The notes: a model not told the origin generated them from the letters alone. A stretch of 52,743 bases of DNA from an uncultured Halobacteria archaeon (GCA_964486625.1 CAZANW010000002.1:1-52743), one strand, 5' to 3'. Positions 16,654-48,640 are shown, numbered from the stretch's first letter. Translations and numbers: made by a program.

Positions 16654-18747
16654 TTATGCAAAAATGGCGTGCGGAATCGCCATGGCGAGCCGGGCCGGAA
16701 ACCACTCTACGGGCTCCTTGAATGTCTCGTAGTGGTTCTCCGCGACCACGCCCTCCGCCGACCTGAGGCGGGCGACGATGGCGGACCCCGGCGCCAGGTC
16801 CCACGCGAACTCCCCGACCGGCGCGACGGAGTCCGGGGGCGCGGTGAGATGGGATTCCCAGCGGAGCCCCCCGGGTCCCTCGACCTCGGCGGTCCCGCGG
16901 AAGGGCGCCATTGCGTCGTTCACCACCCAGGCCCGGGCCTCCAGCAGGCCTGCGCGGAACCTCCAATCGAGGCTCGGCAGCAGGGGCTGGCACGACTCCC
17001 GGACGGCGTCGCAGGCGCGCTTGCGCGACCCGCCATGCTCGACGACGCTCCACGACACGCAGGGCCAGGGCTCGTTCCACATCCAGAGGGCGAGGCCACC
17101 GCAAGGGTGGTCGGGGTCGTCCTTCCTTCGCCGGTGGTGCTCGATGGCCGTTTTGAGCGCGGCGGCCTGGGCGCGCTGGCTGACCTCGACGAACTCCTCC
17201 AGCGCCGGGTTTTTCGATTTCAGGAACACCCGGACGTATCGCTTCAATTTCGGCATCGAGGCCTTGTGGAATTTCCACCCCTGCCCCGGGGGCCACGGGT
17301 TCGACAGCATCCGCTTCATAGTTTCGACCGAGGGGCACGCCTGGAGTCCGAACTCGCTCACGAACGGCGCGAGGTTTCGCTTGCAGGCCTGCAGGGGCGC
17401 GAACATGTGCCACACGTTCCAATCGTGGACGTCGCCGTGGCGGGGGGAAGAGGGGTGGTAGGGCCGGGTGGGGTCGAGGGAGCGGACCGTTTCCTCCAGG
17501 GCCCGGAAGAGACGGGCGTTGCGCCACGCGCTGTATTCGTTGCCGCCGCACCAGAGGAAGAGGGAGGGGTGGTTGCGGAGGTCCCGCACGATTCCTGCGG
17601 CCTCCTGCCGCGCGAGGTCGCAGAAGGCGCGCGACTGTTCGTAGGTCTTGCAGGCGAAGGGGAAGTCCTGCCACACCAGGAGGCCGAGCCGGTCGCAGAG
17701 GTCGTAGAAGAAGCGCGGCTCCCGGAGGCCGCCGCCCCAGACCCGGAGGAAGTTCAGGTTCGCGTCGCGGGCGGCTTTCAGGAGCGATTCATAGCGGTTT
17801 TCATCGAGGCGCAGGAGGCTGTCGGGGGGCACCCAGTTGGCGCCGCGGAGGAACTCGCGGCGGCCGTTGACCTTGAAAAGCCAGAGGTTCTTTCCCGGGT
17901 CTCCGGGCCGGAGAGGCAACCGCTCGACGGTCCGGAGGCCGATGGGAATCTCGACCGCGTCCGAGCCGTCGATGGCGACACGGAGCGGGTGGAGAGCGGG
18001 TTCCCCGCGGTCCCAGGGTTCCCAGCGGCCGAGGCCCGCTGTCGGGAGGTGGAGGAGCGCCTGTCCCTGCGCGGCGCAGGTGGCGGCCGCACCCCCCGCG
18101 AGGGAGGCCCGGAGGGTGCCCGGACCCTGCGACCCCTCGATGCGCGCCTCGGCCTGCAGCGTGCTTCCGTGGAGGAACGCGAACACCTCCGACAGCATCG
18201 CTGGTCCCGTCTCGAACGTCTCCACCGCGTCCCACAGCCCCGAGGTTACGATGCGGGGCGCGAAGTCCCACTGGTAGCCGAACTGGGCCTTCAGCGCGCG
18301 GCGGCGCTTCGGAGGCGGAGGGGCCAGCCGGACCGCCAGGAGGTTGTCGCCCCGGAGGCGGGGGGTGGCGTCGAACTCGACCGGCGAGAACATCCCGACG
18401 TGGCGCCCCAGCAGGGTCCCGTTCAGCCAGAACTCGGCGTCGTAGTCCACGCCGGAAAAGCGGAGCCAGAGCCTCCGTCCCAGCGCCGGAGAGGCTTGAA
18501 ACCGGGTCCGGTACCACCACTCCTTCCGCGCCGTCGGCTCCAGGAGTCGGGCGTTCCCGTCGCGGTAGGGGTCGGGAAAAAGCCCCGCTTCGACGAGGGC
18601 CGCCTGGACCGTCCCTGGCACCCGGGCCGGAATCCCGTCGGGCGGATCGCGGTCCGGGAGATGAGCCCCGGCCTTGAGACCGCTGCCGGGCTCGAAGCCG
18701 TGGAGGCTCCAGGGGCCGTCCACGGGTCGGGAGGAGGGGCGGCGCAC
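16654..18747 (-). CDS. Glycoside hydrolase family 2 (beta-mannosidase/exo-glucosaminidase-like)
   Basis: WWYRTRF, RFSGVDYDAEFWLNG, NLNFLRVWGGG and LLVWQDFPFAC are typical of GH2 sugar-binding and TIM-barrel modules. Confidence 0.8.
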   Translation of the reverse strand: MRRPSSRPVDGPWSLHGFEPGSGLKAGAHLPDRDPPDGIPARVPGTVQAALVEAGLFPDPYRDGNARLLEPTARKEWWYRTRFQASPALGRRLWLRFSGVDYDAEFWLNGTLLGRHVGMFSPVEFDATPRLRGDNLLAVRLAPPPPKRRRALKAQFGYQWDFAPRIVTSGLWDAVETFETGPAMLSEVFAFLHGSTLQAEARIEGSQGPGTLRASLAGGAAATCAAQGQALLHLPTAGLGRWEPWDRGEPALHPLRVAIDGSDAVEIPIGLRTVERLPLRPGDPGKNLWLFKVNGRREFLRGANWVPPDSLLRLDENRYESLLKAARDANLNFLRVWGGGLREPRFFYDLCDRLGLLVWQDFPFACKTYEQSRAFCDLARQEAAGIVRDLRNHPSLFLWCGGNEYSAWRNARLFRALEETVRSLDPTRPYHPSSPRHGDVHDWNVWHMFAPLQACKRNLAPFVSEFGLQACPSVETMKRMLSNPWPPGQGWKFHKASMPKLKRYVRVFLKSKNPALEEFVEVSQRAQAAALKTAIEHHRRRKDDPDHPCGGLALWMWNEPWPCVSWSVVEHGGSRKRACDAVRESCQPLLPSLDWRFRAGLLEARAWVVNDAMAPFRGTAEVEGPGGLRWESHLTAPPDSVAPVGEFAWDLAPGSAIVARLRSAEGVVAENHYETFKEPVEWFPARLAMAIPHAIFA

Positions 18748-18772
18748 GATGGAGGATGGGGACCGGACCCCC

Positions 18773-21074: not shown

Positions 21075-21494
21075 CCGCACGCGCACGCTCGGCGGCACAC
21101 GCATCCGCAGGAGGCGTGTGTTTGCGACGAAGCCGCAAGGCCCCGGCCTCGCTCGCTGCGCTCGCTCGGCCCAGCGCCGCTCCTCGCGCCTCGCCTTCGA
21201 CTCGGCGCTCGCCTTCCGACTGCGCCGAAAGCGAGCGCCCGTGAACGCAAGTTCACGGTCGCTCGTCGCAAATTGGCGCTGGGGGCCGCCTCGCTTGTGC
21301 GCGTGCTCACACAATGCACAGGATGACGTCTCATACGACTGTTGCAAGAGCAGGGGTCGCGGCGCGACGGCGCCCGTAGGCGGCATTTGTGTGGTGTGCG
21401 CGAGCCCGAGCGAGTGCACACCACCGCCGCCGACGAGGCGCGAGCGACCGAAGGGAGCGAGCGCCGAGTAGGGCGCCGAGCGCGCGGCCCGACC
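21075..21494. repeat. GC-rich structured mosaic repeat, locus A (module 1 at 21075-21287; inverted module 2 at 21341-21494)
   Basis: It fills the 485-bp gap between the leuC-like and leuD-like genes. Segment 21163-21287 is the exact reverse complement of 23165-23289. Module 2 is about 80% identical, by eye, to the reverse complement of 35920-36057. Confidence 0.85.
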
Positions 21495-21529
21495 AATCAT
21501 CAAAAAAGGCGATGTAGCGGGGTGGGATG

Positions 21530-35919: not shown

Positions 35920-36057
35920 GGTCAGGCCGCGCGCTCAGTGGCCTGCTCGCCCTCGCTCGGGCTCCGTCGGCGGCGGTACTGAGCGCCCGCACGGCTCGCG
36001 CACATCACAATACTGCCGCCTACGGCCGCCTTCGCGCTGCGGCCCTTGCGCTTGCAA
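35920..36057. repeat. GC-rich structured mosaic repeat, locus D (module 2 type)
   Basis: GGTCAGGCCGCGCGCTC...CGTCGGCGGCGG...GGCTCGCGCACATCACAATACTGCCGCCTACGGCCGCCTTCGCGCTGCGGCCCTTGCGCTTGCAAC aligns to the reverse complement of 21341-21494. It overlaps the 3' end of the dihydroorotase ORF. Confidence 0.75.
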
Positions 36058-37339
36058 CGGCCATTTTGGTTGAAACGGGTGCCGGAGGTTCAGTGCCCCG
36101 CCCCTTCCCCGCCAGGAACTTCCCGCCCCCCAGCTTCCCGACGACCTCCCCTTCGCGCACAACCCGCTCCCCCCGCAGATAGACCTCCTCCGGGAACACC
36201 CCCTTCCACCCCTCGAAAGGTGTCCACCCGCATTTGGAGTGCAACTCCCGCCCCCGGAGGGTCCACTCCGCCTTGAGGTCCACAAGCATGAAGTCGGCGT
36301 CCTTTCCGGGCTCCAGGCCGCCCTTCGCCTCCAGCCCCAGAATCGCCGCCGGGCGCCGGCTCAGGAGGTCCACCGCCCGCGGAAGCATGAGGAGCCCCCG
36401 TCGGACCGCCGAGAGGAGGAGCGGCACCATCGTCTCCACCCCGGGCACCCCGGGGGGCGGGTCGGGCCCCCGCTTCTCCTGCCGCGTGTGGGGCGCGTGG
36501 TCGGAGGCGAGCGCGTCGCCGCGGCCCCGGGCCAGCGGGCGCCAGAGGAGGCGCCGGGTCTCCTCGGACCGGAGGGGCGGGTGGCACCAACCGAAGGACT
36601 TGAGGCGGAGCCAGTCGCGCTCGGAGAGAAGCAGGTGGTGGGGGGCCACCTCGGCGGTGAACCCCGCGGCCCGTGCGGCCATGATGGTCCCCGGGAGAGA
36701 GGCGTGGGCGATATGGAGTCTTTTCCTGGGAAATCTCCGGGCCAGCCACTCCACCGCCTCCCGCTCGCACGCCTCGGGCCGGGACTCATCGGACGCGACG
36801 CACGCCCGGCTCTCGGCGTGCACGATGGCCAGCGCCCCGAGGCGAAAGACGGCCCGTAGGCCGCGCTCCAGCGCCTGCGGGTCGAGGCGATGCATGAAAA
36901 TCTCCCCGAACGCGGCGGCCCCGGCGCGCCGGAGGGCGGGCAGGGCCTTGAGGTTAGCCCCGTCGTAGCCCGCGGCGAGGGCGAAGTCCACCCGGCTCCT
37001 GCGGCGCGCCGCAGCGAGTTTCCTCCGGAACGCGGCCACGGTCGTGGCGGGCGGCACGGTGTTGGGCATGTCGAGGACAGTCGTCACGCCTCCGGCGGCG
37101 GCCGCTGCCGAGCCGGTCGCCCAGTCCTCCTTCCGGGCCTGGCCCATGTCGCGGAAGTGGACGTGGAGGTCCACCGCCCCCGGAAGGAGGAGGCGGCCCC
37201 GGCCGCCGATGCGGCGGAGACCGTAGGGGGCGACTTTCGACACGCGCTCGATGCAGCCTCCGCGAACCACCAAGGCTCCCTCGACGAGGGCGTCGCCCCG
37301 GAGGAGGCGGACGTTGTCAACGCAGAAATCGGCGCTCAC
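36020..37339 (-). CDS. pyrC: Dihydroorotase-type amidohydrolase
   Basis: It has LLLPGAVDLHVHFRD and GGVTTVLDMPNT motifs. GTG 37339 overlaps the AMMECR1 stop (GTGA). The last ~13 codons are encoded by repeat locus D. Confidence 0.75.
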   Translation of the reverse strand: MSADFCVDNVRLLRGDALVEGALVVRGGCIERVSKVAPYGLRRIGGRGRLLLPGAVDLHVHFRDMGQARKEDWATGSAAAAAGGVTTVLDMPNTVPPATTVAAFRRKLAAARRRSRVDFALAAGYDGANLKALPALRRAGAAAFGEIFMHRLDPQALERGLRAVFRLGALAIVHAESRACVASDESRPEACEREAVEWLARRFPRKRLHIAHASLPGTIMAARAAGFTAEVAPHHLLLSERDWLRLKSFGWCHPPLRSEETRRLLWRPLARGRGDALASDHAPHTRQEKRGPDPPPGVPGVETMVPLLLSAVRRGLLMLPRAVDLLSRRPAAILGLEAKGGLEPGKDADFMLVDLKAEWTLRGRELHSKCGWTPFEGWKGVFPEEVYLRGERVVREGEVVGKLGGGKFLAGKGRGTEPPAPVSTKMAVASARAAARRRP

Positions 37340-37932
37340 CGCTTCCGCCCGTCCAGTTCGATTTCTCGCACCGGTCCGCCAGGGGCCTCCTCCCCAAACA
37401 CCTGCCCCCGGAAGGCGAAGACCTGCGTTCCGGAGACGAGCCACGCGTCCATCGGCAGCCCGGCCTTGGCGCAGGTCTCGCAGAGGAACTCCTCAGAGTC
37501 CCACCCGTGCTCCGCCGCCACCTGGGGCAGCAAGAGGCCCGCCCGCGGGCCGCGGCGGACCACGAGGCCGTGCCCCCCCACTTCCACCCGCTTCGGGAAG
37601 TCGAGGGGCGGGCCTCCGAGGGGCTCGAGGGGGCCGAGGCAGGTGACCTCCACCGAGATGCGGGCCATCTCGCCCGCCCGGACCGGCTCCAGCCGCGGGT
37701 CGCGGGTGGCGGCTGCGGCCGATTCGACCACGGCCCGCCCGAAGGGCTGGAGGGGCTCGGGGCGCCCGATGCACCCGCGGAGGAGTTCGCCGCGCTTCAG
37801 GGTCACGAAGGCCCCCCGGGGCTCGCGGAATACGGCCCCGCCGGGGGGCTCGGGGAGGGCCCGCCGGGCCGCCGCAGCCGTCGCCGCCTCCCGGGCAAGG
37901 CAGACGGCGGCGGTCCCGTCGGCGGAAATCAT
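37336..37932 (-). CDS. AMMECR1-domain protein (AmmeMemoRadiSam system protein A)
   Basis: It has the GAFVTLKRGELLRGCIG motif and is 198 aa. Confidence 0.9.
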   Translation of the reverse strand: MISADGTAAVCLAREAATAAAARRALPEPPGGAVFREPRGAFVTLKRGELLRGCIGRPEPLQPFGRAVVESAAAATRDPRLEPVRAGEMARISVEVTCLGPLEPLGGPPLDFPKRVEVGGHGLVVRRGPRAGLLLPQVAAEHGWDSEEFLCETCAKAGLPMDAWLVSGTQVFAFRGQVFGEEAPGGPVREIELDGRKR

Positions 37933-37969
37933 CCGCAGGTGTTATAGGCTCAAAGGATAATCCCTCCTC

Positions 37970-38411
37970 GGGAGCGGGGAAGGGCAGCCGCCGGTCCCGC
38001 GCGGTTCAAACCCGTCGGGGCTGAGGAAAGTCCCCCCACCCGGGCGTCTTCCTCGCGGAAGATGTCCTGAAACGGCGGGCGCCCGCAAGCCCGCGCTTCC
38101 GCGAGGAGGCACGGGCCGGAGGGCGCATCCCGAGAGGGATGGCTCTGGCACAGAAACGGCACTCTGCGCGCCTTGTGCGATGAACCCGCGAGGGCGAGGT
38201 CGGCGTGCAAGAGATGAAACGCCCGCGCAACGGGGCAACCCGGGGTCGCGGGGCGGCGGTTATCCGCCGCGCGAAACCCCGCCGGCGCAAGTCGCTGCGG
38301 CGACGCCAGACGAATGCTGCCGGGCCCCGTGACCCCCCGCCCGGCGGGGGAGCGGTTCCTCCGGGGACCGTGAGAGGGCCCAACCAAAGGGGGCTTACTC
38401 TCCCCACTCCC
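37970..38411 (+). ncRNA. rnpB: RNase P RNA (archaeal type A)
   Basis: There is no credible ORF here. It has GAGGAAAGTCCCCCC (P4 5' strand, about 38025-38040), GGCACAGAAAC, AGAGATGAAAC, and a 3' AAAGGGGGCTTAC that pairs with the P4 5' strand. The 5' GGGAGCGGGGA pairs with the 3' TCCCCACTCCC (P1). The ends are approximate. Confidence 0.8.
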
Positions 38412-38465
38412 AACCATTATTTTTAACACCCATCGATAGCAGTAGACTCATTTGGAGGCATAAAA

Positions 38466-39731
38466 ATGGGCTCGAAATCGAGGGAAGTATTTATACCCCC
38501 CTCAGACCTGGAGCCCGAGATACGACGTCTGGTGGGCGACGAAAACCTCTCCCCGGGTCTCCGGTCGGAGATGGCACGGTACGGCGCCCACCTGAAGGAC
38601 CGGGGGCTCTCCCTCGGGCACCGGACCCGGGAGGTCATGCGGACCCGCGAGTTCCTCCTCCGGTGGAAGCAGCCCGGGCCCCCGGGCCTGGAGGAGGTGA
38701 CCCGCTTCCTCGGCCGCCTCCGGTCGGACGGTCACAAGGAGAAGACCGTCGCCCACTACGCGGGGGCCATCAAGAGGTTCTACACGTGGCGCAACGACGG
38801 GGAGCCGCCCCCGGGGCTCCGCCGGCTGTCGACCTCCCCGCGGGAGAAGAGGAAGATCCGGCCCTTCTGGACCTGGGAGGAGGTGGAGCGGATGCTGGCC
38901 GCCACCGATAGGCCCCAGCACCGGGCCCTCATCATGTGCCTGATGGAGTCGGGGGCCCGGGCGGAGGAGTTCCTCAAGTTGAACGTCGGCGACCTCGTGT
39001 TCGCCCCGGACAGCGGCTACGTGAAGGTCAAGCTGCCGACCGGGAAGACCGGCGAGTACACCCAGCTCTGGATCAAGTCGGTGCCCTATCTCCTGACTTG
39101 GTTTAAGTTCCATCCCGGCCCGCGGAGGGCCGACCGGAGCCTGGAGCCGACGGCCCCGTTGTGGGTCGGGGCCACGCGCCGCAGATACGGCCAGCGATTG
39201 ACCTACCCCGGCCTCTATCACATTCTGCAGGACATCGGGACTGCCGTGGAGGTTCCTGCGGAGAAGAGGAGTCCACACGCAGCCAGAAGGGGAAACGCCA
39301 CTTGGCTGCTCTCCCAGGGTTGGAGCCGAGAAAAAACAAACATGTGGCAAGGTCGCGAAAAAAGCAGCAAATTAATCGATGTCTATGCCCAAGACTTCGA
39401 CTTGTCACAGGAGATGCTGCGAACTGGGGGGCTCGAACCCGCTGCCGCCCAAGCACAGACGGACGAGTTCCGGCCGGTGAAGTGCCAATGGTGCGGCCAT
39501 TACAACGAGGCCCAGCCGCCGCCCAAGAGGTGCGCGGAGTGCGGGAAGCCGCTGACCATCGAGGCAGTGAAGGAGATGGAGGATAAAACCCGGCAGGCCA
39601 CGGACTTCGCCCAACTGGTCGGGGGCGCAATCACGGACCTGTTCCAGTCGCGGCCTGAATTCGAGGCCGCCCTCAAGGAAGCCTTGGAGCGGCGCATGAA
39701 GGCCAAAGCCGGGGATCCGAAGGCCGCCTGA
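38466..39731 (+). CDS. Tyrosine recombinase/integrase with C-terminal zinc ribbon
   Basis: It has an N-terminal SAM-like core-binding region, ESGARAEE (Arg I), HAARRGNATWL (H-x-x-R), a catalytic Tyr region (LIDVYAQ) and CQWCGH...CAECGK. Confidence 0.85.
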   Translation: MGSKSREVFIPPSDLEPEIRRLVGDENLSPGLRSEMARYGAHLKDRGLSLGHRTREVMRTREFLLRWKQPGPPGLEEVTRFLGRLRSDGHKEKTVAHYAGAIKRFYTWRNDGEPPPGLRRLSTSPREKRKIRPFWTWEEVERMLAATDRPQHRALIMCLMESGARAEEFLKLNVGDLVFAPDSGYVKVKLPTGKTGEYTQLWIKSVPYLLTWFKFHPGPRRADRSLEPTAPLWVGATRRRYGQRLTYPGLYHILQDIGTAVEVPAEKRSPHAARRGNATWLLSQGWSREKTNMWQGREKSSKLIDVYAQDFDLSQEMLRTGGLEPAAAQAQTDEFRPVKCQWCGHYNEAQPPPKRCAECGKPLTIEAVKEMEDKTRQATDFAQLVGGAITDLFQSRPEFEAALKEALERRMKAKAGDPKAA

Positions 39732-39740
39732 CCGAAGGGC

Positions 39741-40364
39741 TCAGGGTGTTTTCCCGCCGATAGGCACAAGTGGCCTGCTTGGCGGCTTGTCCAGAAGACC
39801 CGAGAGAGATCGGATCGTAGCTCGTCTGCGAGTTGTCCCCGTTAGCGCGAGGAGGCGGGCTGCTTGCACTGTCGCATCCGGCCCGCGTTTCTTCAATCCT
39901 TCGAGCAACTCGGCAAATTTCTTGATTTCTCTGTCTCCGAAGAACGGGTGAAGAGTTCTATGGACCTGACGAGGATCCGACTTGGACGTCGCGTCCACGA
40001 TGGCCCGCATTCGAGCATCGTCACTCTGAAAGTAAAACCAGAGAATGGCATTGGCTGCCTCGACGGGCCTCATCTTCGTACCACGGCGACGCTCATCTAA
40101 ACTTTTCAAGTAGCCATCGACGAAGGTGTCCCGGACCGGTGCGTTTGAGGAGTACACGACACGAGCCGGACCCCGAGCAGAGATGCGCTCTCTCTGCACA
40201 GTTCCCTCCTCCACCAACCGGTGAATCCAGCGGGCTGCTGTGGCACGCTTAAGGTGGGAGGCCTGTATCCACCTCTCAAAGGTCGCTTTGCCGTTCAATG
40301 CCGACAATGTTGTAAGCAGGATGCCAGCCGGGTCCTTTCGGGGCCCCACAGACAGTCCCATCAC
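39741..40364 (-). CDS. Winged-helix DNA-binding protein (hypothetical)
   Basis: The N-terminal TFERWIQASHLKRATAARWIHRLVEEGTVQRERI is wHTH-like. GC is lower than the host. It is convergent with the integrase. Confidence 0.55.
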   Translation of the reverse strand: MMGLSVGPRKDPAGILLTTLSALNGKATFERWIQASHLKRATAARWIHRLVEEGTVQRERISARGPARVVYSSNAPVRDTFVDGYLKSLDERRRGTKMRPVEAANAILWFYFQSDDARMRAIVDATSKSDPRQVHRTLHPFFGDREIKKFAELLEGLKKRGPDATVQAARLLALTGTTRRRATIRSLSGLLDKPPSRPLVPIGGKTP

Positions 40365-40724
40365 TAAGTCTCATACTTGAGATCCAAATAAAAAGGTTCG
40401 CTACAAATACAAAGTATCATATGCGAGACTTTAACATCCTGGCAGAGAAAAGACAGGCCGATGGCGGAGATGAAGGAGGCACCGGCCACGGACGATGCGC
40501 TGCCGGAATGGGCGAGAACGCTGCTTGCACTCCGGGACCGCCTCATCGGTCCGCGACCCGGGGACAAACCGGAACAGAAGGGTGAGCGACGGTGAGCCAG
40601 GAACCACAGGGACATCTAGAGACGAGCCTTGGCATAGGAGGCCATGCCGGACTTCGGAGACCCGAAAAACAGTTGAAAACGGAGCTGAAAGACCATCAAG
40701 TATCTCAGTTTCCAGCCACGCTCC

Positions 40725-40856
40725 CTGTTCAGGGACCCTGTTCAGGTATCAGTGCAGATATCTGGTTCGGCTTTGGTGTGCCTAAGTTCAGGTACCTGTG
40801 CAGGTATCGGTTCAGATTTTGGCCCCCGTACGTTCAGGTACCTGTTCATGCTCAGG
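40725..40856 (+). promoter_or_regulatory. Iteron-like array of GTTCAGGTA(C/T)C repeats upstream of the RHH/coiled-coil gene
   Basis: CTGTTCAGG (40725), CTGTTCAGGTATC (40738), GTTCAGGTACCTGTGCAGGTATCGGTTCAG (40786-40815) and GTTCAGGTACCTGTTCATGCTCAGG (40832-40856) are followed by AGGAGGGGG and ATG 40870. Confidence 0.6.
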
Positions 40857-40869
40857 AGGGGGATAGTCG

Positions 40870-41385
40870 ATGAACTCCGACCAAGGCGACTCAGAAACCG
40901 AGGCAGTCAGCAAAGCACCGGCACCTAGACGCCGACCCCCATCCCATGACAAATATCAGAAGGCGCATCCCATCATCTCGCTCCATGTGTCGCAGCAAGT
41001 GAAGGCCACTATCGACCAACAAAAGGGGAATGAGTCCTACGGGAAGTTCGTCACCAAACTGGTCACGGATTTTAAGGGCGAGGTCCAGAAGGAGACCAAA
41101 AAGCAACTTGCACCGATTCAGGCACAGTATATAGCACAGGCACAATCTGCCTCCGCCAGACATCAAGCGCAGTTGCAAACTGTCCAAGCCCAGCATAGAG
41201 CGCAATTGCAAAGAAAAGAAGAGGAGATGGGGCGGCTCAAACGGGAAATGGAACACCAAATACAAGAAGAGTTGGAAGGGCTCCCTTGTTTTATTTGCCG
41301 ACGCCCTCTTCGCGAGAGCAAAACTTGGGCTGCATCTCACCAACCATGCTTGGAGAAGCGACTACTCCTTTCTTGCCTCCCCTGA
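40870..41385 (+). CDS. Hypothetical protein: RHH-like N-terminus, Gln-rich coiled coil, Cys-containing C-terminus
   Basis: ISLHVSQQVKATIDQQ is a beta-strand/helix pattern typical of CopG-like proteins. QAQYIAQAQSASARHQAQLQTVQAQHRAQLQ forms a coiled coil. An SD-like AGGAGG lies upstream. Confidence 0.55.
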   Translation: MNSDQGDSETEAVSKAPAPRRRPPSHDKYQKAHPIISLHVSQQVKATIDQQKGNESYGKFVTKLVTDFKGEVQKETKKQLAPIQAQYIAQAQSASARHQAQLQTVQAQHRAQLQRKEEEMGRLKREMEHQIQEELEGLPCFICRRPLRESKTWAASHQPCLEKRLLLSCLP

Positions 41386-41484
41386 CCCGGCCACTGTCGG
41401 TTCCCGCGTCCGGCAGACTCCATCCTCTTGGAGACGACTCCCGGGGAAATCAAGGGAACACGTTGAACTTTCTCAACCCCGCTC

Positions 41485-41832
41485 TCACGCGTACATCCCT
41501 TTCAACCTCTCCCTCTCCACCGCGAACGCCCGGTGCCCCGCCACCATGTGCCGGGTCCGGATGACCAGCCCGCCCTCCCCGGGGTCCCCCTCCTTCAGGG
41601 CCTCCACCGTGGCCGTCTGGACCAGTTCGCCCAGGTGAGGCACACCCTCGTTGTTTTGGGCGGGCCCTACCTCGACCTCCAGGTCGCCGCGAAAGCCGGA
41701 GAGACGATGCAAGAAAAGGGCCTCCGGCTCGTACGCGAAGTCGGCCGGTTCCGGTAGGATGGAGTTCACCGTCCCCGACGATGGCGGGGTTTCACTCGGG
41801 GACAAACTCCGGGCACTCGGGAAGGAGGCCAT
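41485..41832 (-). CDS. Hypothetical protein (115 aa; start uncertain)
   Basis: G/C at codon position 3 is high (about 85% by eye) across 41485-41760. No motif was recognised. The annotated ATG overlaps the divergent gene's 5' end; GTG 41768 is an alternative start. Confidence 0.4.
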   Translation of the reverse strand: MASFPSARSLSPSETPPSSGTVNSILPEPADFAYEPEALFLHRLSGFRGDLEVEVGPAQNNEGVPHLGELVQTATVEALKEGDPGEGGLVIRTRHMVAGHRAFAVERERLKGMYA

Positions 41833-42244
41833 CTACATTTCCGAGTTGAGACTGGTCGAGATGCGGAAAGGGCCGACGGGGAAACCGCTCCTGACATACC
41901 GGGCCAACCCCATGAGCGGCCTTGATTGGCGGAAGGTCCGGGTGTACGAGCGCCGCCGCCCGAGACGAGGTCAAGCCGCGAGAGGCGGCGCCTCCAACTA
42001 CGCGCAGGTCATCGCCATCCATTGCCCAGTCTGTCGCCGATGGGTCCGCAGCAGGGAACTCGGCCGACACCGCCACCGCTGCCGCTCATGCAGGAGGCTG
42101 GTGCTCATCACAATGTTCTTCGCCGAGCCGGGCGGGTGGGCGTGCCGCGAGTGCGCGATGAAGTGGTCGCTCGCCCTGATCGGCCGGAAGCGGCCCGTTC
42201 GCAGCCGGAGGAGGAGATCGAGGGGAGATGGCAAAGCCGGATAG
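41759..42244 (+). CDS. Hypothetical zinc-ribbon protein
   Basis: It has CPVCRR...CRSCRR and CRECA Cys pairs and a basic C-terminus. ATG 41759 (MEFTVPDD) is preferred over the track start 41651. Its 3' end overlaps the next gene by 17 nt. Confidence 0.5.
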   Translation: MEFTVPDDGGVSLGDKLRALGKEAIYISELRLVEMRKGPTGKPLLTYRANPMSGLDWRKVRVYERRRPRRGQAARGGASNYAQVIAIHCPVCRRWVRSRELGRHRHRCRSCRRLVLITMFFAEPGGWACRECAMKWSLALIGRKRPVRSRRRRSRGDGKAG

Positions 42245-42599
42245 GCCGACCGGGTCTGGAGCGCCCGAGCCAACCAGTTACAGCGTCCAGATGCTCATGG
42301 AGGTCGCCGCCCGTGCCGAGAGGGGTCTCCACCGGCTGATGCGCATCGGTCTCGTCGACCGGAGGGACGATGGGTTTGTCCTCACGGAGCGCGGGCGGGC
42401 CATCGCGGAGGAGATGTACCGGGAGGCTAGGAAGAGCGGGACCATCGCGCCTCAGGAGCCGGTCGAGAAGGCTCTCCGCACCGTAGTTGTGATGGCCATT
42501 CTCAAGGCGGCCGAGCCGGATGTCCTGCCTGCGCAGGAGATCGTGGAGTGCGCGGGGGTGCTCATCGCGATGCTCAAGCCTGCGGACGCGGAGAAGTGA
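42228..42599 (+). CDS. Winged-helix (MarR-like) protein
   Basis: GLHRLMRIGLVDRRDDGFVLTERGRAIAEEM is a wHTH wing motif. Confidence 0.55.
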   Translation: MAKPDRPTGSGAPEPTSYSVQMLMEVAARAERGLHRLMRIGLVDRRDDGFVLTERGRAIAEEMYREARKSGTIAPQEPVEKALRTVVVMAILKAAEPDVLPAQEIVECAGVLIAMLKPADAEK

Positions 42600-42641
42600 G
42601 AAGCGTTCCATTTCAGCGCCCGGATTGCATCCAACCTCCAT

Positions 42642-42670
42642 AGGGCCGACATACGTAGTATGTCGGCCCT
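42642..42670 (+). terminator. 13-bp stem hairpin after the wHTH gene
   Basis: AGGGCCGACATAC GTA GTATGTCGGCCCT starts 43 nt after the stop at 42599. No oligo-T tract follows, so function is uncertain. Confidence 0.35.
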
Positions 42671-42738
42671 ATTGCGGGCTCAACGTCTGACCTGCCGCCC
42701 GCCCAGTAATCGCTATCTGCCAGCCAAACAGCTAAACC

Positions 42739-42746
42739 CTTATATA
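42739..42746 (+). promoter_or_regulatory. Putative TATA box upstream of the AbiEi-like gene
   Basis: CTTATATA sits in a very AT-rich stretch about 33 nt upstream of ATG 42780. Confidence 0.35.
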
Positions 42747-42779
42747 CTTCATGTAATTATAATTACTTACTGAGTAACT

Positions 42780-43601
42780 ATGGTTACAAAAAAGATATAC
42801 CTGGGACCTTTGGAACTTCGGCTGCTCTTGGCCCTGGAGGCGCGAGGGGCTAAACTCTTCACCATCGAGGATGCCAAGGCCATTCTCGCCGTATCGGACA
42901 CCTTCGCGAGGAAGTTACTCCACGGCTTGGTGAAGAAGGGACGTCTCACCAGAGTCGAGCGGGGAAAGTACGTCCTCTCCCCCGCGAAGTCGGGTATAGA
43001 GGGGCTCTGGGTCGAGCACCCCTTCCTGATCGTCCCCCACTTGGCCAAGGAGTATTACGTGGGCTTCTGGACCGCCCTGAACTACTGGGGGATGACGGAG
43101 CAGGTTCCCCGGGTTGTCTATGTCGCGATTCCCCGCCCTCACCGGAAGACGGATGTGGAATACGGGGGTTACCGGCTGCAGTTCGTCCACATGGCTGCGC
43201 GGAAGTTCTTCGGATACGGGGAGGAGATGGTCGAGGGGCACCCCTTCAAAGTATCCAGCCCCCGGAAGACGCTCTTGGACTGCCTGGCCCACCCCGAGTA
43301 CTGCGGAGGGGTGGCCGAGGTCGCCAAGGCGCTGTGGCAGAAGAAGTATCAGTTGAGCTGGCACGGCATCGGGGCCGACTTGGACCGGTACGGAGTCGAT
43401 GCCGTACGCAGGCGGTTGGGATACCTGCTGGAGTTGCTGGGGCAGGAGCGGGGCTTGTCGAACGCTCTGGCGAAAAAGACGAGCGTGGGCTACCGGTGGC
43501 TCGACCCCGGCGCCAGAAAAGAAGTTCTGGAGTACTCCAAGAGGTGGGGGTTGATGGTGAACGTGCCCAAAGAGACGCTCTTGGCGTTCAGGTCCTTCTG
43601 A
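42780..43601 (+). CDS. AbiEi-like antitoxin / COG5340 transcriptional regulator (type IV TA)
   Basis: The N-terminal wHTH (LFTIEDAKAILAVSDTFARKLLHGLVKKGRLTRVERGKYVL) and the C-terminal domain with ALNYWGMTEQVP, plus immediate adjacency to a DUF1814 gene, support the call. Confidence 0.75.
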   Translation: MVTKKIYLGPLELRLLLALEARGAKLFTIEDAKAILAVSDTFARKLLHGLVKKGRLTRVERGKYVLSPAKSGIEGLWVEHPFLIVPHLAKEYYVGFWTALNYWGMTEQVPRVVYVAIPRPHRKTDVEYGGYRLQFVHMAARKFFGYGEEMVEGHPFKVSSPRKTLLDCLAHPEYCGGVAEVAKALWQKKYQLSWHGIGADLDRYGVDAVRRRLGYLLELLGQERGLSNALAKKTSVGYRWLDPGARKEVLEYSKRWGLMVNVPKETLLAFRSF

Positions 43602-43603
43602 AG

Positions 43604-44371
43604 ATGGCGGTCCCCGACATCCGCAAGGTTGCCGCGGCGAGCAAGGTCCCGGTGGGGACCATCGAGAAGGACGTCGCGTTGACGATCCTCCTCTCCCGGT
43701 TGTCGAAGAGCGGTCTCGCCGCCCGGACCGCCTTCAAGGGGGGCACCGCCATCAAGATGCTCCACTTCCCCGGCGCCCGGTTCTCCGAGGACCTCGATTT
43801 CACCCTCCTGGGGGTGGACCCCAAGGAGGTCAAGAAGGAGGTCCGGCTGATGACCCGTGCCCCGCATGGGACCTTCGCGTTCGGAGAACTCACCGAAGTC
43901 AGGTCGACCCCGGACAGCCTCCTTTTCCGGGTTCCCTTCACCGGGCCCCTCGACCACAGGGACTCTGTCCGCTTCGACTTCAGCCGCCGCGAGAAGCCCC
44001 TCCGGCCGCTGGAATCGCTGCCGGTCAAGGACCTCTACGGCATCCTCGAGGACGAGGCCCGGGTGCAGGCCCTCGCCCTCCCCGAGATCTTCGCCGAGAA
44101 GGTCAGGGCGCTCCTCCAGACCGGGCTTCCCCGCCACCTGTATGACCTCTGGTTCCTGCTGCGGGAGCGCCCGGGACTCCCGGACCCGGGCCTGATTGAG
44201 GGCAAACTGGCCCCGCACGGGCTGTCGCTCGATGAACCGGCCGTGGACCGGGCGCTGGCCCGGGTGGAACCGGTCTGGAAGAGGGACCTGGAGCCTTTCC
44301 TCGCCCGGTTGCCCGATTTCTCGCCTGTGGCCAAGGACGTCAAGGCGGGGCTTCTCCTGAGGTCCCCATAG
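43604..44371 (+). CDS. AbiEii/AbiGii-family nucleotidyltransferase toxin (DUF1814)
   Basis: It has FKGGTAIKMLH and RFSEDLDFTL motifs. ATG 43604 lies 2 nt after the AbiEi stop. Confidence 0.8.
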   Translation: MAVPDIRKVAAASKVPVGTIEKDVALTILLSRLSKSGLAARTAFKGGTAIKMLHFPGARFSEDLDFTLLGVDPKEVKKEVRLMTRAPHGTFAFGELTEVRSTPDSLLFRVPFTGPLDHRDSVRFDFSRREKPLRPLESLPVKDLYGILEDEARVQALALPEIFAEKVRALLQTGLPRHLYDLWFLLRERPGLPDPGLIEGKLAPHGLSLDEPAVDRALARVEPVWKRDLEPFLARLPDFSPVAKDVKAGLLLRSP

Positions 44372-44446
44372 GCCAGTCCCAGGAAGCGATTATCGACAAA
44401 TTATCGATATATCATGTTTTCGATGCTTGGCGACGGATGGCGCAGT

Positions 44447-45421
44447 TCATCTCCGCAGTCTGGCGAGCATCTCCGCCAGCCCGTCCCCATACCCCCACCC
44501 GATGCCCTTGGCCGACCGGACGACCCTCTCCAGCCTCGGCCGGAACTCCCCCCTCCACCTTGAATCCGGGGGCCTGGAGAGCCGCCGCACCGCCTCCCCG
44601 AAGGCCTCCAGCAGCTCCCCGTAGAACCCCTCGTGGATGTCCCCGAACTGCAGGGTGAACCGGTTCCCGGTCTCCACGAAGCAGACCCAGAGTTCCAGCG
44701 CCCCCCGCCGGTCCCCCGTGTCCTTCTCGTACTCCTCGATGGCCCTGCGGGCGGCCTTGAGCCGCAGCTGGGGCTTCCCGTCCGGAGTGTAGAACCCCTC
44801 CCGGACAGCCCGAAGGGCGACTTGGAAGGCCTCCTTTCCTCTGCGGGTGGTCCAAGAGTCCCTTCCAGCGAGCAGGACGAGGTGCCTCATGGCTTTCCTC
44901 TTCTGCACCTCTCTCTGCCAGGGGTTCTCGAGAATCGCCTCCTTGTTCCGGACCAGGTCCTCCGGCGACGCGACGAAGCACCGGACCCCGGCCACCCGCC
45001 CCTCCACGCGCCCTCTCCAAAGGAGGGGTCCGGAGAGTCCGGCGATTCTCCGGCTGAAGTCCACATCGAGATTCCTGGAGTGGAGCCGGACCGGCCAGCC
45101 CCGGAAGAGCCACCCGGCGGCCCGTTCGTCGCTTCCCTTGAGGTCCCTCCAGCGCAGGGAGTCCCTCACCAGCGTGGGGATGCGCGGCGAGTATCCGCGG
45201 CGGATGAGGGCGCGGAAGACCGCCCTTGCCTCCTTCCGCGCGGGGTTGCAGAGGACGATGTCCAAGTCCTTCGGCCGGTGGGAGGGGACCCACTGGTGCA
45301 GGGCGAACCCTCCAACAACCACGAACCGGAGCCCTTTTCGTTTCAGGAGGGCGAGAACCCGGCGGATTTCCTCGGGAGGGGGCGGCCGGCTGCTTGGTTT
45401 ACCCATGGTGGGCGGAATCAT
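44447..45421 (-). CDS. Nucleotidyltransferase-fold N-domain fused to a helical C-domain (DUF6155-like by recollection)
   Basis: The N-domain is RFVVVGGFALHQW...PKDLDIVL. The C-domain FYTPDGKPQLRLKAARRAIEEYEKDTGD...LELWVCFVETGNRFTLQFGDIHEGFYGELLEAFGEAV follows. The start is ATG 45421 or ATG 45406; the upstream part of the track ORF is shadow. Confidence 0.55.
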   Translation of the reverse strand: MIPPTMGKPSSRPPPPEEIRRVLALLKRKGLRFVVVGGFALHQWVPSHRPKDLDIVLCNPARKEARAVFRALIRRGYSPRIPTLVRDSLRWRDLKGSDERAAGWLFRGWPVRLHSRNLDVDFSRRIAGLSGPLLWRGRVEGRVAGVRCFVASPEDLVRNKEAILENPWQREVQKRKAMRHLVLLAGRDSWTTRRGKEAFQVALRAVREGFYTPDGKPQLRLKAARRAIEEYEKDTGDRRGALELWVCFVETGNRFTLQFGDIHEGFYGELLEAFGEAVRRLSRPPDSRWRGEFRPRLERVVRSAKGIGWGYGDGLAEMLARLRR

Positions 45422-45516
45422 CGGGGACTCTAAGTTGGGGACGGTCCGGGAGGCGAGGGTGACCGCAGTGCTGTTGGGGCATTCCTCCCGGGATAGGGGC
45501 CGCCTGAAAGACTTAT

Positions 45517-45870
45517 TCAGGCCCGCGTCCCCCGGCTCTTCTCCCTGGCCCGGATTCGCGCCACCAACTCCTCCACGGTGGCGGTCTCGCTGTCCCGTAT
45601 CTTCCGGATCTCCCGGACGCTGTCCCGCCCCCTCTCCTCCTCCAGCCGGAGCAGCAGGACCCCCGTGGCCAGCCTCCGCTGGAGGAAAACCAACTCCCCG
45701 AAGTCCTTGTCGTTGGTCAGCAGAATCCTCCGCTCCCTCCGCGCCCGCTCCAAGACCTCCTCGTCCGGTGCGGAGGCGCCACCCTCGGAGACGTAGGCCA
45801 CGTCGTGGCCCCTCTTTCGGAGAAGCCGGACGACCTCTCGCTCGACGTTCTCGTCCGCCAGGAACCTCAT
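45517..45870 (-). CDS. DUF5615 (PIN-like/Mut7-C) putative toxin
   Basis: MRFLADENV...LLRKRGHDVAYV...ILLTNDKDFGELVF is the family hallmark. It overlaps the DUF433 gene by 4 nt. Confidence 0.8.
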   Translation of the reverse strand: MRFLADENVEREVVRLLRKRGHDVAYVSEGGASAPDEEVLERARRERRILLTNDKDFGELVFLQRRLATGVLLLRLEEERGRDSVREIRKIRDSETATVEELVARIRAREKSRGTRA

Positions 45871-46115
45871 GCCCCGGCCTTGACCCAGTGGACCTCTTCG
45901 GTCCCCAGGGACTCGGCGGCGTAGGCGAGGGCGGCCCGGACATCCTCCCGCGTCAGGCGGGGGAACTCCCGGAGAATCTCCTCCACGGAGATGTTCTTGG
46001 AGAGTTTCCTAACGACGAGTTCCACGGGAATCCGCGTCCCCCGGATGACGGGCTTCCCCATCATAACGCGGGGGTTGATCTCGATGCGGGACAGGGGGGA
46101 GCGGGCAGCCATCAA
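45867..46115 (-). CDS. DUF433 putative antitoxin
   Basis: It has MMGKPVIRGTRIPVELVV and SVEEILREFPRLTREDVRAALAYA. Confidence 0.8.
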   Translation of the reverse strand: MMAARSPLSRIEINPRVMMGKPVIRGTRIPVELVVRKLSKNISVEEILREFPRLTREDVRAALAYAAESLGTEEVHWVKAGA

Positions 46116-46414
46116 GGAGAGTCGCGCGGCGGTTCATATAAACGTGAAGGGTCATCCGGCGTTGCGAGTTCACCAAGTCCTCCTGTCCGGCGCCATCGGC
46201 GGACCATGGCCACCGCCCGACCCTCGGTCATTCCGGGCACGGTGAACCCTCGGAGACAGGCGAGGGGCTCGCGCCGCTGGGCCTCCTCCAAGGCCTGCTG
46301 AACCCGGAGGCGGAACCACTCGTCCCGTGTCCGGAACCCCATCACCCGGAGGGCCCGGTCCAGCCGCCCGGCAAGTTCCGAGTCGAGCCTGAAGATGGCC
46401 TGTCTCTTGGCCAT
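46112..46414 (-). CDS. Ribbon-helix-helix (CopG-like) protein
   Basis: The N-terminus is MAKRQAIFRLDSELAGRLDRALRVMGFRTRDEWFRLRVQQAL. It has a 4-nt overlap with the DUF433 gene. The C-terminal half has no recognisable features. Confidence 0.6.
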   Translation of the reverse strand: MAKRQAIFRLDSELAGRLDRALRVMGFRTRDEWFRLRVQQALEEAQRREPLACLRGFTVPGMTEGRAVAMVRRWRRTGGLGELATPDDPSRLYEPPRDSP

Positions 46415-46490
46415 GTTCGATCAAGCACACTGCGACACTTGGACCCATCCATGGGCCGAGGTCGAGACGCACCACTGGGTCACCGACGGT

Positions 46491-46592
46491 CCAAAACCCC
46501 GTTTTCGGCCCCCCGAACTGCCCCCGCGCCCCTCTCCCGCTCCGGTTTTTCCGGACCTTTCCGAACTGGCCGGGAGGCTTACTCCACTCCAA
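46491..46592 (+). repeat. ~100-bp direct repeat, left copy (ends in degenerate att core)
   Basis: CCAAAACCCCGTTTTCGGCCCCCCGAACTGCCCCCGCGCCCCTCTCCCGCTCCGGTTTTTCCGGACCTTTCCGAACTGGCCGGGAGGCTTACTCCACTCC is nearly identical to 48020-48123. Confidence 0.85.
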
Positions 46593-46693
46593 TACCGCAG
46601 GCACGACCGGAGCCACCAAGCCGCTGCCCAGCCTATCAGGGTTTCAGGTAGCCGAGGGAAAACTTTACGATTGGCCGAGGCCGAGGGTTTCGA

Positions 46694-47974
46694 ATGGCCG
46701 AACCCAAACCTTTCGATTGGACGACCCCGGGCGCGGCCCGTCTCTACCCCCGCCACGCTGCGGCGCGCCTCGTGGAGGCACTGTCGGACTCGCCCGTGGT
46801 GCTGGTTCACGGCCCCCGGCAGTGCGGCAAGACGACGCTGGCGCGTATGGTGGGAGAGCCGCGGGGCTTCGCCTACTTCAACTTCGACGACGACGTGACT
46901 CGCGCCGCCGCCGCCCAGGATCCCGCCGGCTTCGTGGCCGACCTGCCGCGACGGGTCGTCCTGGACGAGGTGCAGCGGGTTCCGCAACTGTTCGGCGCCC
47001 TCAAGACGGCGGTGGACCGGCACCGCTCGCCGGGCCGGTTCATCCTGACCGGCTCGACCCACGTGCTGCTGCTCCCCCGGCTCGCCGACTCGCTGGCCGG
47101 GCGTATGGAGATCCTGCAGCTTCATCCCCTGGCCCAATGCGAGATCGAGCGGCGCTCCCCGCGTTTCCTGGACCTGCTCTTCGGCCGCGGCTTCAAGACC
47201 CGGACCTCGGAGCGGCTCGGCCACCAACTGGCCGGGCGGATCGTGGCTGGCGGCTACCCGGCGGCCCTCGCGCGCCCCGGCGAGCGCCGCCGCGCGGCGT
47301 GGTACCGGGATTACGTCGAGGCGCTCGTCCAGCGCGACGTGCGCGGCCTCTCCCGGGTCGGCGCGCTGGAGGCCCTGCCGCGCCTGCTCGCCCTCGCCGC
47401 CTCGCAGACGGCGCGCCTGCTGAACGTGGCGGAGCTCGCGGCCCCCTTCCAGCTCAGCCGGCCGACCGTCCGCGACTACGTCACGCTGCTGGAGCGCGTC
47501 TTCCTCCTGCAGAGGCTGCCCCCCTGGCACACCAGCCGGCTGAAGAGGCTCGTGAGGACGCCCAAGCTGCACCTCAGCGACACCGGCGTGGCGGCGGCCC
47601 TCCTCGGCGTGGAGGCGAGGGGTCTGGCGGCCGACCGGCCCCTGCTCGGGCAGCTCCTTGAGACGTTCGTGTTCCAGGAACTGCGGAGGCAGGCGAGTTG
47701 GCGCGACGAGGCCACGGCATTCTTCCACTTCCGGGACAAGGACGGCGCCGAGGTGGACATCGTGGTCGAGCGGGGCGCAGGGGAAGTGGCGGGAATCGAG
47801 GTGAAGGCCTCCGCCACCGTCGCTCCGGCGGACTTCCGCGGCCTGCGCAAGCTCAGGGAGGCTGCGGGCAGGCGCTTCGCCGCGGGCGTGGTGCTCTACG
47901 ACGGGGAGGCGAGCGCGACCTTCGGCGGCGGCCTCTATGCCGTGCCGGTCCGCGCCCTGTGGGAACCTCTGTGA
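46694..47974 (+). CDS. AAA+ ATPase of the AAA_14/DUF4143 family
   Basis: It has Walker A GPRQCGKTT, Walker B VVLDEVQ and a C-terminal DUF4143-like restriction-endonuclease-fold region (VDIVVERGAGEVAGIEVK). Confidence 0.85.
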   Translation: MAEPKPFDWTTPGAARLYPRHAAARLVEALSDSPVVLVHGPRQCGKTTLARMVGEPRGFAYFNFDDDVTRAAAAQDPAGFVADLPRRVVLDEVQRVPQLFGALKTAVDRHRSPGRFILTGSTHVLLLPRLADSLAGRMEILQLHPLAQCEIERRSPRFLDLLFGRGFKTRTSERLGHQLAGRIVAGGYPAALARPGERRRAAWYRDYVEALVQRDVRGLSRVGALEALPRLLALAASQTARLLNVAELAAPFQLSRPTVRDYVTLLERVFLLQRLPPWHTSRLKRLVRTPKLHLSDTGVAAALLGVEARGLAADRPLLGQLLETFVFQELRRQASWRDEATAFFHFRDKDGAEVDIVVERGAGEVAGIEVKASATVAPADFRGLRKLREAAGRRFAAGVVLYDGEASATFGGGLYAVPVRALWEPL

Positions 47975-48019
47975 GCCGGCCGCGTATGTTCTGGGCGACG
48001 TGGGAGATCTGCTGACTGC

Positions 48020-48123
48020 CCAAAAACCCCGTTTTCGGCCCCCCGAACTGCCCCCGCGCCCCTCTCCCGCTCCGGTTTTTCCGGACCTTTCCGAACCGGC
48101 CGGGAGGCTTACTCTCCCCACTC
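48020..48123 (+). repeat. ~100-bp direct repeat, right copy (ends in intact att core)
   Basis: It matches 46491-46592 apart from one A insertion, one T/C change and the 4-nt TCCC present here. Confidence 0.85.
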
Positions 48124-48189
48124 TCTGGGAACAGGGGGTTTACCACCCTCTGCTCCCATCCCACTGTCCGTGAGGGGACCCACCGCCCG

Positions 48190-48640
48190 GGCCAGGGCCG
48201 CGTGGGAGGTCCGAAGTTGGTCTTCGAGGCCCATCTTCTTGGCCTCTTGCTTGGCCCCCTGGAAACTTTCGGGTTTTCGAAAAGCCGGAAGAGCAAGTCG
48301 AGGGAGTTTCGCTCGGCCGCCTCGGCCTTCTCGACCGCCATCGCCGTAGGGGCGTCGCGGGGGAGCCCGCACCGCCCGCAGAAGAGGCCCACGGCGGAGT
48401 TGGGGTCTTTGCACCGGACGCAGTTCCAAGGCTTGAGGGGAACTGGGCCTGCTCCGCCTGCTCCACCTCGACGCCAGCGGAGCAAAGGATGGATTTATCG
48501 ACGTCCCTCCCGGCCAAGTGGACGTGGTGGGCGGGCATTTTGGAGTTCTTGGACCCGTCGAAGAAAAGGCGCATTTCAGGCTCCGTAAGATGGACCGCAA
48601 GGTGGGTGGCGCGGGTGTGCCGGAATGCGTGGGGGTTGAC
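48190..48640 (-). pseudogene. Decayed 3' part of a second tyrosine integrase (same zinc-ribbon architecture)
   Basis: The reverse strand reads NPHAFRHTRATHLAVHLTEPEMRLFFDGSKNSKMPAHHVHLAGRDVDKSIL (His replaces the expected catalytic Tyr). In other frames it reads PWNCVRCKDPNSAVGLFCGRCG...LFRLFENPK and ESFQGAKQEAKKMG. At least two frameshifts are present and the N-terminal two-thirds are missing. Confidence 0.7.

Follow-up and report, generated by a model that had tools for sequence, protein, structure and literature searches.

A putative integrative island at the 3' end of an uncultured archaeon's RNase P RNA gene

Organisation of the locus

The stretch of DNA examined here, hereafter the window, is a metagenome contig of 52,743 nt from an uncultured Halobacteria archaeon (GCA_964486625.1, CAZANW010000002.1:1-52743), with all positions counted from its first letter. 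Between host genes for an amidohydrolase and AMMECR1 on the left and for TFB, Trm5/TYW2 and NMD3 on the right lie the gene for RNase P RNA (rnpB, ~442 nt, 37970-38411, plus strand), an intact tyrosine integrase gene on the same strand, and a set of accessory genes reaching to a second exact copy of an 18-bp block from the end of rnpB. This arrangement is interpreted as a site-specific integrative island, 9,714 bp long between core starts, which the tyrosine integrase inserted in the last 18 bp of rnpB, a reading to which we assign a probability of about 0.85. The first-pass annotation, made from this sequence alone, had proposed an integrase island of the gene-3'-end type in rnpB, and the repeats, the end of the RNA, the integrase and an empty site in relatives are all consistent with it.

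The RNase P RNA gene and its terminal helices

The extent of rnpB was determined from a local match to the RNaseP_arch model, from alignment with the homologous RNA of a distantly related contig (L002) and from the pairing of helices P1 and P4. With Rfam run in E-value mode, RNaseP_arch (RF00373) matched positions 38113-38228 at 52.4 bits, against a threshold of 84, and covered model positions 66-182, while a weak match to RNase MRP, of the RNaseP clan, spanned 38340-38410 and paired that stretch as a terminal helix. As these matches alone do not fix the 3' end of the window RNA, the end was established through the L002 RNA and covariation. The L002 homologue matches RNaseP_arch over its full length (104.7 bits, model positions 1-288), with a 3' end reading ...GGGGGCUUACUCUCCACACUC, and the window RNA (37970-38411) aligns full length with it and with four more homologues. 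Since the L002 homologue passes the threshold and the window RNA aligns with it, the latter was treated as a divergent RF00373 member with insertions; in three other related loci (L009, L010 and L012) the RNA did not reach the RF00373 gathering threshold in Rfam. All four elements of the conserved RNase P core, namely the P4 strand GAGGAAAGUCC, ACAGAAACG, the 3' P4 strand GGGGGCUUAC and the closing helix P1, are present and invariant in the six aligned RNAs.

Helices were assigned by hand on the six-sequence alignment, placing P1 at 37970-37982 (5' strand) and 38398-38411 (3' strand) and P4 at 38028-38036 and 38389-38396, all on the plus strand. Pairing in P1 and P4 is maintained in 99% of the alignment cells, as against 47-64% when the partner strand is slid by one to three columns. 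The sole variable P1 pair, G-C, is replaced by U-A in L002 and by A-U in L016, a Methanosarcinales metagenome-assembled genome (MAG), which amounts to two compensatory changes, and its 3' nucleotide is the variable position within the core, CTCTCC[N]CACTC. The pairing and the compensatory changes thus place the 18-mer within the structured RNA, where GGCUU forms part of the 3' strand of P4 and CUCUCCCCACUC part of the 3' strand of P1. It had been suggested that the RNA ends with the 18-mer and that the block makes up the 3' strands of these two helices; the helix assignment holds, and the L002 covariance-model match together with covariation puts the end at or just past the 18-mer, not upstream of 38392, with the RNA running 2 nt further, to ~38411. 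These two P1 nucleotides beyond the repeat are a CC (38410-38411) contributed by the element, and the UC found at the same place on the right-hand side is also able to pair. On the left-hand side rnpB keeps every P1 and P4 pair, with the CC of the element closing P1, and, judged from its sequence, the RNA gene is left intact after insertion.

The RNase P RNA of this clade is ~440 nt or longer (window 37970-38411; L009 2306-2790; L010 9500-9975; L018 1-560), with large clade-specific insertions between the conserved RNase P cores and, in L018, a further insertion of ~150 nt.

Direct repeats bounding the element

The 18-mer GGCTTACTCTCCCCACTC occurs exactly at 38392-38409, where it constitutes the attL core and the end of the part of rnpB covered by the repeat, and again at 48106-48123, the attR core, both on the plus strand and both as first annotated. 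The 52.7-kb window holds no third match at up to three mismatches. The chance expectation for such a match is 0.07, and two or more copies appeared in none of 100 dinucleotide-preserving shuffles. That the block might be a common repeat is not borne out, as the window has two exact copies and each related locus has one.

A third copy with a 4-nt deletion had also been reported, and it is real, reading GGCTTACT----CCACTC, that is, the 18-mer minus CTCC; it comprises 14 nt at 46576-46589, and the end originally given for it, 46590, takes in the C that follows. This degenerate core forms the tip of a 92-nt direct repeat (D1) in which 46493-46584 corresponds to 48023-48114 at 99% identity, with one mismatch. 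The repeat defines two copies of a right arm on the plus strand: copy A at 46493-46575, followed by the degenerate core, and copy B at 48023-48105, which is the element-side arm of attR. Homology between them begins sharply at 46493/48023, with unrelated sequence upstream. The possibility that the 46.5-kb copy ends a second integrase-bearing element was rejected, since the unit that it delimits, a 1.5-kb ATPase unit sharing the right arm, has no integrase. A further proposal, that the sequence upstream of the two right-hand cores mimics the penultimate helix of the RNA, did not stand up: its local score of 15 compares with 14.3 ± 2.3 in shuffled sequence, and 38% of the shuffles scored as high. 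Helix mimicry is not needed by the mechanism, because only sequence 3' of the crossover must come from the element.

The integrase and the element left end

The integrase gene (38466-39731, plus strand) encodes 421 aa in one intact open reading frame (ORF) that starts 56 nt past the attL core, in agreement with the full-length tyrosine recombinase previously noted close to the first repeat copy; it is not a split int of the SSV type. The protein matches PF00589 over residues 136-309 (36.7 bits, cutoff 27.1) and the phrog_1 integrase family (E 8e-17), with weak matches to the structural templates of XerA (4a8e) and XerD (1a0p). The catalytic set is present as R165, K194, H271, R274, W294 and Y307, assigned by alignment position, and R165, K194, R274 and Y307 are invariant in a four-sequence integrase alignment.

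The C-terminus carries a CxxC...CxxC zinc ribbon with cysteines C340, C343, C356 and C359. This ribbon (39483-39545, residues 340-360) is common to a large family of archaeal integrases of ~400 aa (P0274-P0392), many members of which carry PF13240 and have the JGI name 'XerD/ribosomal protein L40E'; neither zinc nor ribbon occurs as a word in a 2021 review of archaeal tyrosine recombinases (PMC8371274).

Within the zinc-ribbon integrases the branch found here is rare, since 1,082 matches were obtained at E <= 1e-10 among 1.84 billion cluster representatives and only two at E <= 1e-30. The window integrase and protein P0002 form a small isolated branch seen only behind rnpB. Relatives at 24-34% identity comprise integrases of Methanomicrobiales, Archaeoglobus/Geoglobus and Halorubrum viruses. 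One relative, P0281, is 25% identical over 398 residues and shares the domain layout; its gene has the canonical geometry, being oriented like the tRNA-Ser(TGA) gene that it follows at a distance of 22 nt, and the attR of this tRNA-Ser-adjacent element was sought in contig L025 and not found.

The 56-nt left end of the element (38410-38465, plus strand) consists of the CC with which P1 ends, a T-rich tract (ATTATTTTTAA) and a GGAGG motif placed 8 nt before the int ATG. It is conserved with the 61-nt left end in L002, with an alignment score of 58 against -12 ± 7 for shuffled sequences, and would comprise the int promoter and ribosome-binding site and possibly a terminator for rnpB.

Empty and occupied sites in related genomes

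Relatives of the window were located via the proteins closest to its AMMECR1 and represent three lineages; related MAG records label the uncultured host, an archaeon of about 69% G+C, as Halobacteria, Methanobacteriota or Euryarchaeota. The first lineage (L010-L014; three hot-spring MAGs and two Logan runs) has an AMMECR1 79% identical to that of the window. Its left flank, rnpB 3' end and right flank are contiguous and contain no integrase: window positions 36100-38411 correspond to L010 11845-9507, and 48103-48198 to L010 9529-9434. An empty site, as sought in relatives, was therefore found in these five loci, where rnpB is followed directly by the homologue of 48124-48198 (plus strand), the native downstream flank of rnpB, which in the window stands displaced by 9.7 kb. 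Compared with L010, the 75-nt right flank without the core gives a local score of 57, against 15.9 ± 2.3 for shuffled sequences with a maximum of 27, whereas the element left end scores 17 against the same L010 flank.

This flank includes a stem-loop 3' of rnpB (~48131-48163; L010 ~9500-9468, minus strand), retained in the empty-site relatives as well as in the attR flank although the sequences differ (GGGAA.CAGGGGGU...ACCCUCUG.CUCCC in the window versus GGGAU..CGGGGGGAU...AUCCCCCC.CUCCC in L010). Its folding energy is not significant against shuffles. The stem-loop may be a native 3' processing or termination signal displaced by the insertion. Further out, rnpB of the empty-site relatives has genes for a glycoside hydrolase and for KaiC-like ATPases within 5-8 kb (L010 1999-5147); in the window these genes are 17-32 kb from rnpB in other orientations (16667-18748, 21261-21509 and 35953-36062), so the right-hand neighbourhood has been rearranged. 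The only tRNA gene in the window is a tRNA-Pro(CGG) at 9205-9277 on the minus strand.

The distant relative L002, with an AMMECR1 55% identical to that of the window, has the order amidohydrolase, AMMECR1, rnpB and integrase, the latter 55-56% identical to the window integrase and its one close homologue. The cargo behind it is entirely different: besides a gene for a RusA-like protein and two unknowns, it includes a fragment of a second integrase, at the contig end. This fragment (L002 13699-14092) is the N-terminus of a XerC/D-like integrase with a SAM-like N-terminal domain and may belong to a tandem or nested element.

The closest relative, L009 (AMMECR1 85% identical), has ~60 nt resembling the element left end immediately after rnpB (2243-2330, minus strand; score 23 against -14 ± 7 shuffled, maximum 10), next to an unrelated gene for a multi-pass membrane or AAA-like protein that contains an assembly gap, with no integrase. 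A 432-aa ORF behind rnpB in L009 was considered as a candidate integrase and ruled out; it also lacks a counterpart in the window. On its sequence, the left-end-like stretch may be a scar left by an earlier element. Two short contigs from metagenomes, L019 (1-40) and L020 (1), belong to a 79% relative and stop at the rnpB 3' end or just short of it; L019 stops 17 nt past the core, with a similar flank (CCAAC...TTTTTT). Assembly breaks are frequent at sites where the population is polymorphic.

Other searches extended this picture little. In the Methanosarcinales MAG L016 rnpB has a converging ORF behind it. Searching genome contigs with a gapped DNA pattern for rnpB returned only three loci, two of which were already known, an AMMECR1 protein search of genome contigs returned no relatives, and an exact look-up of the TFB protein, aimed at an empty site in the same strain, returned no record. 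The junction of rnpB, attL and int occurs at 100% identity in an independent Logan contig (L001). Metagenome contigs gave no match to the integrase alignment or the rnpB pattern; viral contigs contained only distant integrases (24-33% identity) and left the right-arm and archaeal rnpB 3'-end patterns unmatched, a core-pattern match in an AT-rich phage among them (L021) being a chance match.

Accessory genes and the ATPase unit

The region behind the integrase differs in composition from its surroundings, with a G+C content of 63.2% over 38410-46590 and a minimum of 56%, compared with ~70% in the flanks. Directly after int lies a gene on the minus strand for a 207-aa protein (39741-40364), a candidate regulator on account of a weak winged-helix (MarR-like) signal that remains below the cutoff (E 0.0036), with no PHROG or PADLOC match. 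Three predicted ORFs on the plus strand have no assigned function (171 aa at 40870-41385, 197 aa at 41651-42244 and 123 aa at 42228-42599); the last of these has a weak winged helix-turn-helix signal, and together they span the lowest-GC part of the island (40870-42599).

Two adjacent genes on the plus strand follow. The first (42780-43601) encodes an AbiEi antitoxin and transcriptional regulator (PF09407, PF13338; PADLOC AbiEi, E 3e-75), and the second (43604-44371) an AbiEii nucleotidyltransferase toxin (PF08843, E 3.5e-33; PADLOC AbiEii, E 9e-41), whose start was placed at the ATG right behind the AbiEi stop. From domain content and adjacency, the pair is a predicted AbiE abortive-infection or type IV toxin-antitoxin system. 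On the minus strand are a nucleotidyltransferase-like protein of ~320 aa (44447-45421; weak PF14907 match, start estimated), of which a longer 498-aa version overlaps the next gene and is probably over-extended, and a putative toxin-antitoxin module (45517-46115) composed of DUF5615 (PIN-like, 45517-45870; PF18480, E 2e-24) and DUF433 (45867-46115; PF04255, E 9e-25).

The right end of the island is a 1,533-bp unit (46591-48123) with a G+C content of 71.7% and no integrase, its only gene being that of an AAA_14/DUF4143 ATPase (46694-47974, plus strand; PF13635, PF13173; PADLOC defence candidate PDC-S01, E 3e-169). The unit is bounded on both sides by arm and core, the left core being short by 4 nt. 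Contig L027, 1,560 nt from Logan run SRR5161795, equals window positions 46493-48052 at 100% identity, and its 30-nt terminal overlap closes a cycle in the assembly graph. Taking this overlap as evidence of a 1.53-kb circle was rejected, because two flanking repeats yield an identical graph cycle, although the overlap is equally compatible with a circle; no independent copy of the ATPase unit was found, L027 being a repeat-bounded graph cycle only. At the same end, a minus-strand ORF (47853-48485) with a CxxC...CxxC motif and no Pfam match starts in host DNA right of attR and extends over the attR core as far as the right arm; should this be a genuine small gene, its 3' end was replaced by the insertion.

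Discussion

The features described above support, at the level of sequence, classical 3'-end integration with a new target gene. In the proposed mechanism, a circular form of the element would carry an attP made up of the right arm, the 18-bp core and the left end with the int promoter, and the integrase would exchange strands in the core with the identical segment ending rnpB. The crossover would fall within the gene, where the 3' strands of P4 and P1 are encoded, with the element supplying everything 3' of it; because the crossover lies inside the gene, the element brings its own copy of the segment and the two C residues closing P1. The RNA sequence would thus be unchanged after insertion and P1 would stay closed, while the original 3' segment and the native downstream hairpin would be pushed 9.7 kb away to become attR. 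Beside rnpB the native stem-loop would be replaced by the T-rich tract, which may act as terminator and TATA box, and int would sit directly behind the restored gene, reading outward from this T-rich, TATA-like left end. The cargo is read as defence and addiction modules, comprising AbiEi/AbiEii, DUF5615/DUF433 and the nucleotidyltransferase-like gene; once in place, AbiE and the DUF5615/DUF433 pair would make the island more stable and may offer the host protection. We infer that the event was an insertion here rather than an excision in the relatives, and the island may be mobile today.

Several points weigh against this interpretation. An Rfam scan of the whole window at the gathering score returned no RNase P RNA match, and no genes for replication, packaging or virion formation, or conjugation and transfer were recognised among the island proteins with Pfam and PHROG. 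The homology right of the core ends after ~75 nt, beyond which gene order differs between the window and L010, so that the empty site rests on a short, highly significant stretch. Only two integrase-bearing examples at rnpB were found, those of the window and L002, and the attR of the element in L002 (MAG GCA_016207465.1), which has GGCTTACTCTCCACACTC at its rnpB, is off the contig. Lastly, between the window and L002 the integrase has diverged as far as AMMECR1 has, with ~55-56% amino-acid identity in both, which fits long vertical co-inheritance too.

This last point invites the view that the island is an old, fixed relic, in which int and rnpB were already linked in the ancestor shared by the window and L002 and the linkage was then passed down vertically without mobility, the integrase being domesticated or undecayed and the linkage having been lost in the L010 lineage. 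The DNA identity of the int region (67.4%, compared with 66.6% in neighbouring housekeeping genes) is in keeping with such a history, as is the lack of any attP-type junction or other free or excised form in the viral and metagenome collections. We nevertheless judge it unlikely, given that the flanking cores are perfect (18/18), that the two right arms are 99% identical and point to recent activity, that the two lineages have none of the cargo behind int in common, that the G+C of the island is still 7 points off, and that the site in the L010 lineage is clean, with contiguous flanks. Under the relic view, moreover, a clean L010 site means that the island was lost by precise excision from core to core, which is itself integrase activity at this very site; cores, arms, cargo, G+C gap and empty site all require core-to-core recombination, and a relic would therefore alter the timing of the event and not its nature. 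A coincidental pair of 18-mers, or a contig joining unrelated DNA, would be far less probable still. The window is indeed a metagenome contig whose attR-host junction lacks a counterpart in a second assembly (L027 ends at 48052), but this must be set against the low chance expectation for the repeat, the identical rnpB-attL-int junction in contig L001, the position of the integrase repeated in L002, and the sequence past the second core, which, unlike a random join, is homologous to the rnpB downstream region of relatives.

Having favoured insertion by the integrase for the island as a whole, we turn to its right end, where the arrival route of the ATPase unit can be pictured in two ways. The unit is perhaps best seen as a small unit bearing attP, or as a sister element that suffered deletion, which recombined with attR in a tandem accretion at the site and whose left core has since lost CTCC; with this loss only the outer core pair is intact, so both units would now excise together. 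Arm and core on both sides of the ATPase gene are what recombination of a small attP circle with attR should leave. Tandem accretion is known from the integrative and conjugative element (ICE) ICESt1 and the cis-mobilisable element (CIME) of Streptococcus thermophilus, in which an integrase-less unit with att-type boundaries stands in tandem with an integrase-bearing element. The unit described here likewise lies in tandem at one chromosomal site, lacks an integrase and is bounded by att-type sequences, but it is archaeal, has a single defence-candidate gene and includes one core with a 4-nt deletion; its mobilisation in trans would be conjecture. The other picture is a local duplication or rearrangement of the island right end, or a host ATPase gene trapped between two attR copies. 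The host-like G+C of the unit, set against 63.2% in the rest of the island, makes local duplication a live alternative, and the missing integrase and the near identity of the two right arms suit it as well; against it stand the sharp start of arm homology, with unrelated sequence upstream, and the double boundary of arm and core. We regard this second picture as possible, at somewhat less than even odds.

That elements integrate at the 3' end of tRNA and tmRNA genes is textbook knowledge, and other stable RNA genes are hardly documented as targets. The islands known from tRNA and tmRNA genes, as set out in the sublocation scheme of Williams (2002) that is summarised in PMC8371274, share with the present one an integrase beside an intact RNA gene and reading away from it, a direct repeat equal to the 3' segment of the RNA, a gene restored by element sequence, an asymmetric 3'-end core in an acceptor-like terminal helix, and tandem arrays at one site. 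Here, in contrast, the target is the single-copy ribozyme gene rnpB, and the core covers the P4 pseudoknot strand and P1 instead of the T arm and acceptor stem. The archaeal targets listed in the 2021 review (PMC8371274) are tRNA genes, a few protein-coding genes and intergenic sites, with no other RNA gene; the TIGER/Islander target classes are tRNA/tmRNA, coding sequence and intergenic; and a 2026 survey (the ProBord paper) puts 'ncRNA' at 13.5% of RNA targets without naming the genes. No paper linking rnpB to an att site was found in the searched full-text literature, although other literature or database tables may differ, and the first annotation's remark that rnpB had not been described as an archaeal integration target agrees with this. 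Integration of phage phiEf11 into ffs (4.5S/signal recognition particle RNA) of Enterococcus faecalis was reported as a novel attachment site in 2025 (PMC12540744), where pneumococcal prophages in csRNA genes are also cited. These cases share site-specific integration in a stable RNA gene other than tRNA and an identity block between attP and the gene, and differ in being complete bacterial phages in other RNA genes. Among archaeal integrases, the present one resembles the classical types of viruses and plasmids, such as those of pleomorphic and tailed viruses, in that int stays intact on integration; with int intact and attP outside it, the enzyme is of the classical, non-suicidal type, from which it differs by belonging to an isolated small branch seen only behind rnpB.

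A broader scenario can be offered tentatively. The window integrase and P0002 may represent a lineage of zinc-ribbon integrases that switched from tRNA genes to rnpB as a dedicated target, making rnpB a recurrent hot spot of this archaeal clade, with two lineages occupied, a third scarred and a fourth empty, and small integrase-less defence cassettes with only a shared attP arm, the 1.5-kb PDC-S01 unit being an example, may be captured and exchanged there in trans.

For practical purposes, island finders limited to tRNA/tmRNA genes or to Rfam thresholds would file such islands as 'intergenic', and the integrase and its 18-bp core are candidates for a tool to insert DNA at a locus that archaea universally possess. 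The island would add an archaeal example of defence genes (AbiE, PDC-S01) carried on a small integrative element. It would also extend the rule of targeting a conserved RNA gene and restoring it to a single-copy ribozyme gene, which suggests that the target need not be tRNA-like.

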